Shown here: positions 56,678-61,130 of the stretch, piece after piece
Layout of the letters: each line of letters opens with the position of its first letter
Numbering within the stretch: the first letter of the stretch is position 1
Assembly: GCA_965262725.1 (NCBI GenBank)
Contig: OZ253555.1
Location: 960,001-1,024,000, forward strand
Direction of reading: 5' to 3'
Source: Dehalococcoidia bacterium
Lineage (GTDB): Bacteria; Chloroflexota; Dehalococcoidia; UBA2979
Length of the DNA: 64,000 nucleotides
The notes under the pieces: generated by a model
Told to the model about the DNA's origin: nothing
The model's input: the letters and a program-made list of their open reading frames with translations, nothing else
Database searches by the model: none
Made by a program: the position numbers and the translations under genes

Positions 56678-57700
56678 GTGAGCATGACGACCGCGACTCT
56701 CTTGTCGGCGGCGCGAGCGGAGTCCCTGCGGCGTGCGCTCGTGGTTCTGGCGGCGCTGGCCGGTGCCGCGAGCGGCCTCTACGTGCTCAGCTCGCAGCCC
56801 GCGGCGGACTTCCTCCGGGAAGGCCCCGCGCGCGTCCTCGGCGTGGAGGGCTCGGAGATCCGACTGCTGATGGGTCTGGGGTGCATGCTCGCCGCCGCCG
56901 CTGCGAGCATCGCGCTGTGGCGGCGAGTCTCGCCCGGGCGGCTCGTGCTCGCGGGCGCCGCGCTGGCCGCCGCGCTCGGCCTGGTGCACGTCCTCGCGGC
57001 ACCGGCAACGACTCTGCTCCTTCTCTCCGTCATCGTCGATCGCGCGCCGCACATCACGCGCTCTCGTCTGGTCGAGGTCGGTCCACGTCGCTATCCTGTT
57101 CGCTGGGGGGTGGGGGCCGTCGCCGGCGTCACCGCGCTGGTCGTGGTCTCCGTGGTCTCGTTCTATCTCGCCCGCCCGCTCTTCGACGAGGGCACACGCC
57201 TCGACGAGGGGCTGACCTTCGCGGTCGCGGGCCTGGTGCAGCCGACCGCGGATACGGGCGCGACCGCGCCCACAGATGCGCCGACCCCGGCACCGGCCGC
57301 GGCACCAACCGCGCCGCCAACAGCCGCCGCCTCCCCTGCCGGTGACTCGGACTCTCGCCCTCAGCAGGGCGAGCTGGTGGCGCGTGGAGAGCTCGAGGGT
57401 GCGGACGCCTTCCACACGGCGCACGGCGAGGTGCTCCTCGTTCGCTCTCCGGAGGGCGACGTGGTGCTGCGATTCCAGGACTACGAGGTGCGCAACGGCC
57501 CCGGGCTCTACGTCTACCTGACGCCGGATCCAGGGGGCGACGTGCACGCGGCCGGCGCCGTCGAACTCTCCCCGGTCCGCGCGACGAGCGGGTTCGTGAA
57601 CTACGACGTGCCCGCCGATCTTGATTCGGGCTCCTTCCGCGCCGTGGTGATCTACTGCAAGCCGTTCAGCGTCACCTTCGCCACCGCGCAGCTTCGCTAG
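56678..57700 (+). CDS. Membrane protein with C-terminal DM13 domain
   Basis: Several TM segments, Pro/Thr/Ala linker, GELEGAD.FH..HG...NGPGLYVYL..G.VNY.VP...VVIYCKPFSVTFATA. Confidence 0.82.
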   Translation: MSMTTATLLSAARAESLRRALVVLAALAGAASGLYVLSSQPAADFLREGPARVLGVEGSEIRLLMGLGCMLAAAAASIALWRRVSPGRLVLAGAALAAALGLVHVLAAPATTLLLLSVIVDRAPHITRSRLVEVGPRRYPVRWGVGAVAGVTALVVVSVVSFYLARPLFDEGTRLDEGLTFAVAGLVQPTADTGATAPTDAPTPAPAAAPTAPPTAAASPAGDSDSRPQQGELVARGELEGADAFHTAHGEVLLVRSPEGDVVLRFQDYEVRNGPGLYVYLTPDPGGDVHAAGAVELSPVRATSGFVNYDVPADLDSGSFRAVVIYCKPFSVTFATAQLR

Positions 57701-57739: not shown

Positions 57740-59873
57740 TCAGGCGAGCGGGAGCAGGAAGCCGAGGGTGGTGCCGCGAGCCGCGCTGGAGGAGGCGGTC
57801 ACCTCGCCCCCGTGCTGCTCGGCGATCGCGCGCACGATCGCGAGACCGAGACCGGAGCCGTCGGCGTCGGCACGGCTCTGTTGGTCGCGTGCCCTCTCCG
57901 CGCGGTAGAAGCGCTCCCAGATGAGGGGGAGCGCTCCCTCCGCGATCGGGACACCGTCGTTGTGGACCGTCAGCCGCGCGCCGCCTCCCGTGCTCTCCAC
58001 GAGCAGCTCGATCGTCGAGTCGGGGGTTGCGTACTGGATCGCGTTGCGCAGCAGGTTCCCGATCGCCCGCTCGATCAGCGTCCCGTCGAGGGGGAAGGCC
58101 GGGATCTTCGGGTCTGCGGTCAGCAGCAGCCTGACCCCGGCGCGCTCCGCGATCGGCTTCATACCGTCCGCCACGTCGGCCGCGATCTCCTCGAGATCGA
58201 GCCGCGTGCGTCCGGAAGTCGAAGGGGTGGTGACGTGATGACGTGACCGGTCCGGAGACATGCTCGTTGCTGCCAGCCGGTGAGAGTCCGGCACGGGTAA
58301 CTGTCAGGAGGCCCGTTAGCAGGTCGGCGGCGTGGACGGGAAACGGTCTGCGTCGAAGCCCGACGTCAAGAGCCCTATGAGGGGGAGCAAACGTGCGGTC
58401 CGCAGCATGACGCGAAGTCTGCCGCGCCGTGAGACTCGCCTGTCTATTGACAGGACCAAGGAGGAGCCGAGCCCGGGTGGTCAGGGCGAAGGCCATGGAC
58501 GAGGTGAAGATCCTGGAATGCAGCCTCAAGAAACCTCCCGGCGTATGGGACGTGGAACGTACGGAAGGTAGCGACGGGAACCGGAGAAGCCCTCCCCGGC
58601 CCGGCACCCTGTGAGAGGGCGTCGGAGCGAGGCGTCCTATAACCGGTCAGAGCCGGGAAGTGGACAGCCAGCCGGAAGGGTGGCGGAGGGGGTCGTAGTA
58701 CCGCTGGAGCCGGACGGACAACATAACCGCCGGTGATGGGAAGGACCCCTACTTTGTCCGTGCATGTTGCTGGGGGTGTGGACTGGTGAGTGCCCCTCGG
58801 GGCTAGCAACCACTTGGTAGGGTTCGAGGCTCTCCGCACATGCTGTACCGGCTGGCCAAGGCACGACCCACGTTGTGGGGAGCGCTGCATGCCATCTGGT
58901 GAAGGGCATCGGTGAGCCGGATGAGGGAGAACCTCACGTCCGGTTCGATGTGGCAGGGGCTGGAGACGGACGCTGCTATGGCCGTGGAGTTGGGCACCAC
59001 CGGGAAACCGGCTTGGAACTGATGCGCCACCGCCTACGGCTCGCACCGCGCCAGCCCCTGACCCTACGCCAGTTCGCGGGCGGCGCCCGCCTCGATCCGC
59101 GCGAGCTCGAAGAGGTCGTCGATCAGGCGTGCCAGGCGGTCCACCTCGCGGCGCACAAGCGCGTGGTAGTGCGCCACGTCGGCCGGCTCGCTGACGACGC
59201 CGTCGTCGAGTGCGTCGACGGCGGCGCGGATCGCCGCAAGGGGGGTGCGCAGGTCGTGTGAGATCGCCGTGGTGATCTCCGTCCGCTCACGCTCCACCTC
59301 GGCGCGCCGCTGCTCGGCCCGGCTGAGCGAGGCCCGCAGATCATCGACCGCGCCTGCGAGCTCGCTGACCTCGTCCTTGACGATATGGGCGTCGTCGCGG
59401 GGGGAGGTCGTCTCGTCCGCCGTGCCGCCCGAGGCGAGCGCCCGGACCTCCGCGGCGAGGGAGCGGACGCGCCGCGTCGTGTCGAGAGCGCCGAGCGCCG
59501 AGACGACCGCGGCGACGCTGCCGGCCGCGAGGCTGACCGCGAGCAGCAGCCGCAGGTCGTGCGCAGTGTTTACGAACATGAACGAGGCAACGGCGAGGAC
59601 GGTTGCGAGAGCCGCCACCGCCCCCATCGAGCCGGCCACGAAGGCCCGGGCGACCAGTGGAACCCCGGCCCGGCTGATCCATCGGAGAACGAGCACGCCG
59701 ACCGCCGTGCTGACGGCCCCCGCGAGGCCGAGCAGCAGCACGAGATCTGCAAGCTCGGCGCCGGACATCGGGAGCAGGGCGCGCGACGCGACCGCCCCGA
59801 CGACGACGGCAGCGATCACACCAGCGGGCAGGAGTCGCTCAAGCCAGGCGGAGGAGAGGACGCCCGGCCCCAT
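57740..59873 (-). pseudogene. Sensor histidine kinase (TM-HAMP-HisKA-HATPase) interrupted by a group II intron
   Basis: H-box ISHDLRTPL in the 5' part; N-box GNLLRNAIQY, ERFYRA and GSGLGLAIV in the 3' part; removing 58206-59067 restores one frame (..ARELA/RLDLEEIA..); alternative start at 59906. Confidence 0.88.
58206..59067 (+). mobile_element. Group II intron lacking an intact RT/maturase ORF
   Basis: 5' GUGCG; domain V gagccggatgagggagaacctcacgtccggttc (58914-58946) with AGC triad; domain VI stem caggggctgg/ccagcccctg with bulged A at 59061; 3' end CUAC; no target duplication. Confidence 0.92.
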
Positions 59874-59895
59874 GCCCGCGCCCGTCTCCCGGAGA

Positions 59896-60579
59896 CTACG
59901 GCTCAAACTTGTACCCCACGCCCCACACGGTCTTCAGGTAGCGCGGTCGCGACGGATCGGGCTCGAGCTTGGCGCGGAGCCGCCGCATATGGACAGTGAC
60001 CGTGTTCTCCTCCGTTTCCGTGTCGTGATCCCAGACCGCCGTGATCAACTGTTCCCGGGTGAAGACCTGCCGCGGGTGGGCGGCGAGCACAAGCAGGAGG
60101 TCGAACTCGCGCGCGGTCAGCCGCAGCTCGCCCGCGCGCGTCGTGACCGTGCGCCCTCGGCGGTCGATCCGGAGGTCGCCGTGATGCAGCACGTCGCTTC
60201 CCTCCTCGGCCCGGCCGGTGCGGCGCAGCACTGCCTCGACGCGGGCAGCGAGTTCACGCGGGCTGAACGGCTTGGTGACGTAGTCGTCGGCGCCGAAGTC
60301 GAAACCCGCCAGGCGGTCGGCCTCCCCTGCGCGCGCCGTTAGCATGACGATCGGGACGTTGCTGACGGAGCGAATGCGGCGGCAGACGTCGACGCCATCG
60401 AGACCCGGAAGCATCAGGTCGAGCACGATGAGGTCGGGCCGGAAGTCGTCGAAGGCACGCAGCGCGGCGGGACCATCCCCAGCGACCTCCACGTCGTGCC
60501 CGTCACGCTCAAGGTAGCGGACGACAACGTCCGCCACCGTCGGCTCGTCCTCGACGACGAGGACCCGGGTCGCGAGCAT
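59896..60579 (-). CDS. OmpR/PhoB-family response regulator
   Basis: VVEDE, LDLMLP (phospho-Asp), GADDYVTKPFSPREL, LTAREFDLL, TVWGVGY. Confidence 0.94.
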   Translation of the reverse strand: MLATRVLVVEDEPTVADVVVRYLERDGHDVEVAGDGPAALRAFDDFRPDLIVLDLMLPGLDGVDVCRRIRSVSNVPIVMLTARAGEADRLAGFDFGADDYVTKPFSPRELAARVEAVLRRTGRAEEGSDVLHHGDLRIDRRGRTVTTRAGELRLTAREFDLLLVLAAHPRQVFTREQLITAVWDHDTETEENTVTVHMRRLRAKLEPDPSRPRYLKTVWGVGYKFEP

Positions 60580-60620
60580 GGTCGCCTCCTGTGGCGCCGA
60601 CCCATCACTCCCGTCGAGCA

Positions 60621-61130
60621 TAGATGGAATGAGGGTCGGCCACCTCCCCAGAGGGGGTAGTCGCCCCCGGAGCCCGAGGCCCCGCTGGGCCAAAGAGCAA
60701 CTCCAAAGGCCTTGGCGAGGTAGGAGGCCGACCGTAACACCGCGTCAGTCACAGCGAGCAGCGAGCAGCGGGCAGGGGGGAGCAGGGGCCGTGACCATCG
60801 GCTTCGATGTGAGCGATCGCTATAGCCAGATCGGCGCGCCAAGGCAGCCGGCGCGATGAAGCGGGCACTCTCCGACCCGCGGGTCGCCCGGGTGCTGCTC
60901 GAGGTGGGTGCCGCGCGCGCCGTGGCTCAGCCGGCTCGCACCCGCGGCGAGTGGGGCTGATCGTGCGCAGCGAGCGTACGACCGACCGACTGGACGCCGA
61001 GCAGTGGCTCGGCTCGGCCGGATCGAGCGGCTCTCCTCCGCCCGTCCGGCCCCGCAGCGCCTGGGTCCAGACCGACCACGCCGACTTCGCGGCGTGCGGG
61101 CCCGGACTCCGCCGATCGACTTATGGGCAC
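60621..61130 (+). pseudogene. Decayed IS110-family element (left end plus frameshifted N-terminal transposase fragments); right boundary approximate
   Basis: Fragments in different frames: VTIGFDVSDRYSQI, VLLEVG, PWLSRL, LIVRSERTTDRLDAEQ, ARLGRIE, resembling the DEDD RuvC-like N-terminus. Confidence 0.7.

Follow-up and report, generated by a model that had tools for sequence, protein, structure and literature searches.

An ORF-less group II intron lying antisense in a histidine kinase gene of a Dehalococcoidia bacterium, and its nested parental introns

In a 64-kb stretch of the genome of a Dehalococcoidia bacterium (assembly GCA_965262725.1, contig OZ253555.1, positions 960,001 to 1,024,000; "the window" below means this whole stretch), the gene for a two-component histidine kinase is interrupted by a complete group II intron of 862 nt, which has no open reading frame (ORF) of its own and lies antisense to the gene. 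The insertion is real and precise, it has no target duplication, and comparison with other alleles shows it to be recent and polymorphic among very close relatives. We consider it very probable that the element is an ORF-less derivative of a larger intron, that it is mobilized in trans in the manner of RmInt1, and that it reached the kinase gene as an off-target event. Coordinates below are those of the window unless they are said to be genome coordinates, which refer to G000:C1, the single 3.67-Mb contig (70.6% GC) that makes up this genome.

The intron and the interrupted kinase gene

The intron occupies 58206..59067 on the + strand, as placed by Rfam matches, by its other copies and by an empty allele. 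It starts with the 5' splice-site consensus GUGCG (58206..58210, +) and closes on CCCTAC, with CUAC at 59064-59067, which follows the GUGYG/AY rule for group II termini; the ends are set by the empty kinase allele together with 28 common 5' junctions. The domain I core lies at 58274..58410 (+), where the Rfam model group-II-D1D4-4 (RF02003) matches over model positions 1-138 of 138 with 102.8 bits and an E-value of 7.8e-22, against a gathering score of 49; this is the sole RNA match at gathering level in the window. In a permissive scan of a 1.3-kb search region, the model for domains V and VI (Intron_gpII, RF00029) matches 58912-59067 with 37.5 bits (E-value 1.9e-5) and stops on the proposed final base. 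Domain V itself, recognized by Intron_gpII and by two plastid D5 models, is a 34-nt segment at 58914..58947 (+) that starts GAGCCG; it agrees with the usual domain V helix in length and in the conserved AGC.

Domain VI (58952..59063, +) was delimited by folding and covariation. A 12-bp closing stem joins 58952-58963 to 59051-59063 and leaves A59061, the branch-point candidate, bulged 7 nt before the end. The fold has a minimum free energy z-score of -4.9, and none of 200 shuffled sequences folded equally well. An alignment of eight distinct relatives has compensatory double changes in 7 of the 38 predicted pairs; two of these changes are in the closing stem and are carried by the relatives called type B below. 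The sequence-only reading of this DNA had described an insert of 862 nt with GUGCG...CUAC ends, a domain V and a bulged A 7 nt from the end, and all of these are present. The intron would be expected to splice, to judge from its sequence.

The distal part of domain VI is enlarged by an insertion of about 90 nt (58964-59050). It is kept in the relatives of types A and B and in genomes G003 and G008, in at least two genera, and its pairs covary. A search under the exact phrase "insertion in domain VI" found no printed description of such an insertion, which is too narrow a scope to call it undescribed. An alternative 3' end was also considered, with a short domain VI followed by a 3' extension as in B.c.I4; it had been suggested by a type A match to domains V and VI that falls 87 nt before the end (Rfam, 41.5 bits). 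It is ruled out by the empty kinase allele and by uninterrupted IS630-like sites, which place the ends at CCCTAC, and by the covariation of the long-range domain VI stem.

The host gene, on the - strand, encodes an OmpR-type two-component histidine kinase, and the intron lies between its HisKA and HATPase_c domains. Domain searches place the 5' part, with membrane segments, HAMP and HisKA, at 59068..59906 (domains in 59070-59906), and the 3' part, with HATPase_c and severed from its start, at 57740..58205 (domain in 57743-58204). The two domains follow one another on the two halves, they are contiguous in orthologues, and the gene for an intact response regulator of the OmpR/PhoB family (59896..60693, -) lies directly upstream in the same operon; the best match of this regulator, MtrA-like, reaches 247 bits where the cut-off is 300. 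A gene converging on the kinase ends at 57700. Excision of the 862 nt in silico rebuilds an alanine codon, GC/G, and yields the product AARELA/RLDLEEIAADV (here and below a slash marks the insertion point). The joined kinase aligns without a gap to uninterrupted orthologues in all four of four same-genus genomes, with 72-84% identity over 429-434 columns, and in one of these, G001, the DNA at the kinase site is nearly identical to the joined flanks. The proposals that removal of the insert restores the kinase frame, and that the intron is on + and the kinase on -, are both borne out; HAMP and HisKA lie upstream of the insert and HATPase_c downstream.

We compared the kinase locus with contigs from four public runs (X1, X7, X17 and X18), which come from four studies. 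In X7, X17 and X18 a contig joins 58204 to 59067, skipping exactly 862 nt, with no other letter changed in about 1040 flanking bases. In X1, contigs pass from the unique flank into both intron ends, 26 and 30 nt deep; an empty-allele contig was not seen in this run, in contigs that drop rare variants. The exact empty allele in three of the four runs agrees with the absence of a target duplication noted from the sequence. Since empty alleles with identical flanks occur in three other studies, the insertion must be recent and polymorphic, and the suggestion of a recent event, at first made from the intact flanks, gains from this comparison and from the uninterrupted kinase of the four same-genus genomes.

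With the intron present, intron bases 59064-59066 form a TAG that closes the kinase frame, and the interrupted product, of 279 residues, keeps the sensor, HAMP and HisKA but is without the ATPase domain. Group II splicing acts on sense RNA only, and the intron is antisense to the kinase, so the kinase mRNA should be beyond repair by splicing. The sequence-only reading called the gene knocked out, and this stands for the gene itself, which is cut between its phospho-acceptor and ATPase domains; that kinase signaling is lost as well is something we infer.

Copies, parental introns and target sites

The 862-nt intron is present in the genome as 24 full-length copies at 100% identity, one copy covering positions 1-857 and three copies interrupted by other elements, which together give the 28 5' junctions; genome-wide, RF00029 finds 59 matches to domains V and VI. 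Among these identical copies there are 13 distinct target sequences, with good pairing to the exon-binding sites described below, and the picture of a non-autonomous, multi-copy element is well founded. Some copies lie in sense inside long open frames (for example at genome positions 1,822,597 and 3,057,210), and those at 380,701 and 537,614 are apparently antisense.

Two sets of introns encoding a reverse transcriptase (RT) share ribozyme parts with it: type A, with 12 copies at 86-89% identity, and type B, with three copies at 79-81%. All 15 of these introns carry the 862-nt intron, in sense and at the same position of the RT gene, and are therefore twintrons. This home site falls at the codons CFESIP/HDRLM and splits the RVT_1 domain at profile position 83/90. 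Once the inner intron is taken out in silico, type A is 2074 nt long and has an intact frame of 461 codons in 9 of the 12 copies. The protein so encoded (the intron-encoded protein, IEP) has RVT_1 and GIIM by Pfam and no endonuclease (En) domain, with 38 residues following GIIM, and its two halves match TIGR04416 at positions 2-137 and 140-352 of 353. Probes for an empty home site had 0 matches in the genome. An uninterrupted parent was found in another genome of the same genus, G003, where the intron is 2073 nt long, has a frame of 472 codons and retains an empty home site; intron-like DNA was present in 4 of the 40 other genomes searched. The search for an RT-bearing parent that the sequence-only reading had pointed to has thus turned up relatives, but every cognate RT gene in this genome is split by the same intron.

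When the intron is aligned with type A and the uninterrupted parent of G003, the remnant of the lost IEP gene is seen to lie in domain IV, at 58786..58870 (+). The IEP start, GTG AGT GCC, is kept and runs to a stop after 6 codons (58786-58806), an N-terminal remnant of the ORF (58845-58870) abuts the deletion, and remnants of both ORF ends flank a gap of about 1.2 kb. Nothing else of the ORF is left, as the description of the intron as ORF-less would have it, whereas the ribozyme domains survive, as does the sequence around the start codon of the IEP. We take the alignment to show that the 862-nt intron is an evident derivative, by an ORF deletion of about 1.2 kb in domain IV, of a group II intron encoding an RT/maturase without En. 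Its preferred target is shown to lie inside the RT gene of its own parental family.

How the targets are recognized was studied on 14 upstream flanks, 13 of them distinct, which have in common CGAG at -14 to -11 and CYRC at -4 to -1. Hexamer scoring and covariation identify exon-binding site 1 (EBS1) as GUGGUC at 58477..58482 (+), which pairs with -6 to -1 and forms 71 of the 84 possible pairs over the 14 sites; it is the best hexamer bar one, at intron position 22, which was set aside as too close to the 5' end. EBS2, placed by covariation, is GACUCG at 58433..58438 (+) and complements the intron-binding site 2 (IBS2) of the home site at -14 to -9. It is precisely in these two segments that the three intron types (inner, A and B) diverge, each version fitting its own target: the EBS1/IBS1 and EBS2/IBS2 pairs are CAAUU/GGUUG and CGGAUA/UAUCCG in type A, and ACCC/GGGU and GAGUCC/GGACUC in type B. 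A T stands at -15 in 11 of the 14 sites, though it is unable to pair with EBS2; in RmInt1 the T at -15 is contacted by the IEP (PMC8914252, in part). The kinase target site (58192..58205, +) consists of an IBS2 reading CGAGAU (58192-58197) and, at -5 to -1, an IBS1 reading GCCGC (58201-58205), with the T at -15 at 58191. With its partial IBS2, full IBS1 and T at -15, the kinase copy is shown to be an off-target event.

Several further arrangements were seen among these introns (genome coordinates in this paragraph and the next). The type A intron at 548384-552181 holds two identical 862-nt copies head to tail at the home site (549500-551223), which suggests re-insertion at the 5' junction of the resident copy, so that the downstream exon adds little to recognition. 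A three-level nest occupies 732582-737446, where a type B intron contains an 862-nt copy that is in turn split after position 722, in domain V, by an insert of 1923 nt; this innermost insert starts GTGCG and encodes an RT frame of 500 aa. Similar nest junctions seem to be present in G008 (L039-L042). All 12 type A introns (for example 1183435-1186370, L015) are inserted antisense at SADQILD/NL, close to where an IS630-like transposase gene (DDE_3 and HTH) has its 3' end. An uninterrupted gene of this kind is found at L044:464-1606, and uninterrupted type A sites remain at 10 places in the genome by probes of 14+14 nt, with an eleventh by probes of 10+10 nt. A separate family, type C, is found at 1850342-1851451, for example, and at 11 other places. 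Its RT frames, 475-500 aa long, are uninterrupted, and it has 12 RVT_1 and 13 domain V matches; these uninterrupted RT proteins share no more than 38-40% identity with the type A IEP.

Other side observations concern single copies of the 862-nt intron and their surroundings. In one IS630-like transposase gene, the 5' part holds the copy at 380701-381562, antisense; the type A site of the same insertion sequence (IS) copy, at 382601, is empty. The copy at 1524130-1524991 (L045), counted outside types A and B, interrupts in sense an RT gene that belongs to another intron family, at YESGY/YGFSHGFRPGRS. One of the interrupted copies is broken by a 2628-nt element with inverted ends (291405-294032) and another by an insert of 1208 nt (1391733-1392940). 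Mobile elements are very numerous in this genome. Among its repeated frames are identical ones of 350 aa and 565 aa, with weak Bac_DnaA matches at about 33 places; they may be the ATPases of a multi-copy IS.

Orientation, mobilization and alternative explanations

The cumulative GC skew of the genome is lowest at 0.41 Mb and highest at 2.525 Mb, with dnaA at 0.478 Mb, and the sense strand of the intron follows fork movement in 25 of the 28 copies. Among copies outside types A and B, 11 of 12 are co-oriented with the fork, and the twelfth lies 11 kb beyond the skew maximum. The type A sites, sorted by replication strand, are 10 favorable to 2 unfavorable where occupied and 5 to 6 where empty; this split is suggestive only, as IS elements can move after invasion.

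For introns whose IEP lacks En, a ribonucleoprotein (RNP) is described as reverse-splicing into the single-stranded lagging-strand template and using the nascent lagging strand as primer (PMC8914252, PMC4424553, both in part), and a survey gives ORF-less introns a moderate lagging-strand bias, with up to 101 introns per genome (PMC8919778, in part). By the same route, an RNP of excised intron RNA and an IEP acting in trans would have reverse-spliced into the transiently single-stranded lagging-strand template at the fork. The cDNA would then have been primed by the nascent lagging strand, since the IEP is without an endonuclease domain. The orientation of the intron would be dictated by the direction of the fork and not by the host gene, and as the kinase gene is transcribed head-on to replication, an intron directed by replication would come to lie antisense in it.

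The helper for this process must be either an IEP made from a spliced twintron transcript or a distant IEP. We favor the former, with the cognate IEP made after the inner intron has left the twintron transcript, because the frame is intact in 9 of 12 type A copies and because the start region of domain IV has been kept. A further proposal, which we put forward only tentatively and hold to be somewhat doubtful, casts the ORF-less intron as an obligate hyperparasite in control of its own helper, there being no RT/maturase until the parasite splices from the outer transcript. If this were true, the whole family, with its burst to 28 identical copies, would depend for its mobility on a self-referential splicing switch, and either self-splicing or a distant maturase would be required to set that switch going.

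Several observations weigh against the explanation given here. The Rfam score for domains V and VI is below the gathering score of 40, a shortfall that comes from the roughly 100 nt inserted in domain VI. At the kinase site, pairing with IBS2 amounts to four Watson-Crick pairs and one wobble over six positions; position +1, which is A in 9 of the 14 sites, is G there; and no covarying nucleotide that could serve as the EBS3 or delta partner of +1 was found when inner positions 200-210 were compared among the three intron types. Two nested copies (genome coordinates 1,451,984 and 3,120,020) oppose fork movement. The contigs used for the allele comparison are Logan contigs, which lose rare variants, so that X1 may hold the empty allele too. 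Finally, the genome has no uninterrupted cognate IEP gene, all IEPs more than 70% identical to type A being split at residue 197/198.

The last of these points bears on the source of the helper, which might be a distantly related, uninterrupted IEP of type C or similar in place of the split IEP of types A and B. Proteins of this sort are at hand (12 RVT_1 matches in uninterrupted frames of 475-500 aa), every closer relative of the type A IEP is interrupted, and some IEPs of Thermosynechococcus elongatus mobilize several ORF-less introns (PMC2882425, in part). We nevertheless regard a distant helper as unlikely, in view of the low identity of these candidates to the type A IEP (38-40%) and of the failure of BLASTN to match their intron RNAs to the 862-nt intron. 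In Ll.LtrB the start-codon region of domain IV is the main IEP-binding site, and the inner intron here retains the parental form of that region; the 9 of 12 type A frames that are intact after removal of the inner intron are, moreover, what one would expect if these genes were still used.

Two other explanations leave the helper aside. That the copies spread as DNA, or that the insertion in the kinase is spurious, a repeat having misled the assembly, with no reverse splicing in either case, would account for copies that are all identical, like a collapsed or copy-pasted repeat, and for the many copies inside IS630-like elements, which transpose as DNA. It can hardly be reconciled with 13 distinct sites that have exact common ends, no target duplication and EBS1/EBS2 pairing, with contigs of X1 that enter both intron ends from unique flank while other runs have the exact empty site, or with a strand bias that tracks replication, and we give it almost no credence. 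It is also improbable, to a lesser degree, that loss of the kinase is of no consequence, the truncated sensor-HAMP-HisKA protein, a separately started HATPase_c or a paralogue being sufficient and the insertion neutral or even selected. The response regulator and both kinase parts are without any other lesion, and the genome has other HisKA/HATPase_c kinases (three further matches in G000), as that explanation would have it; however, the ATP-binding domain is 862 nt away, behind a stop codon and with no evident start of its own, and empty alleles dominate the other three runs.

Comparison with known systems

The nearest known system is that of T. elongatus, with the introns TeI3, which is ORF-less, and TeI4, which encodes an RT. 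One difference lies in the proteins: the IEPs of T. elongatus are akin to EcI5, where an En domain is present. The IEP of the present family is without En, and the copies here follow the direction of replication. The likenesses are a single ORF deletion with remnants of both ORF ends kept, ORF-less copies that outnumber their RT-encoding relatives, twintrons with identical inner copies, and insertion in IS elements; the ORF-less introns of T. elongatus are, moreover, mobilized in trans (Mohr, Ghanem and Lambowitz 2010, PMC2882425, in part). According to the same source, the inner intron in T. elongatus sits between two start codons, so that an IEP can be made without its removal, and two IEP genes are uninterrupted, whereas here the RT domain itself is split and 15 of 15 cognate genes are occupied (PMC2882425).

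RmInt1 of Sinorhizobium meliloti (class IIB3/D) resembles the present family in having no En domain and in the residence of its RT form in an IS630-family element, and further in a preference for the lagging-strand template, in the T at -15 and in rare ectopic sites (PMC8914252, in part). It carries its own ORF, whereas the 862-nt intron is ORF-less, and it differs from the present family, which has the insertion of about 90 nt in domain VI. The likeness to RmInt1 and class D is behavioral only, consisting in the IS630 home, the T at -15 and the missing En.

Nested group II introns were reportedly described from Methanosarcina acetivorans by Dai and Zimmerly in 2003 (RNA 9:14). There, ORF-less and RT-encoding introns home into related introns, which provide a perpetual homing site and give rise to multi-level nests (PMC4424553, PMC2882425, both in part). 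The genome studied here likewise has a multi-level nest, of three levels; M. acetivorans is an archaeon in which the flanking exons are without coding ORFs, whereas here there are also off-target copies in cellular genes, the kinase included.

The locus offers a clean natural gene knockout by a non-autonomous group II intron, with the empty allele still circulating and an orientation that would be explained by replication and not by transcription. With about 59 intron 3' ends in 3.67 Mb, this genome should be a good system for studying the mobilization of ORF-less introns and the rate at which they erode host genes, and it suits equally the question whether twintron splicing limits helper expression. 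Just two points are mildly unusual: every cognate RT gene is occupied, and domain VI contains a covarying insertion of about 90 nt. Both the element and the event are of a known kind, here unusually fully documented, and no new mechanism is required.

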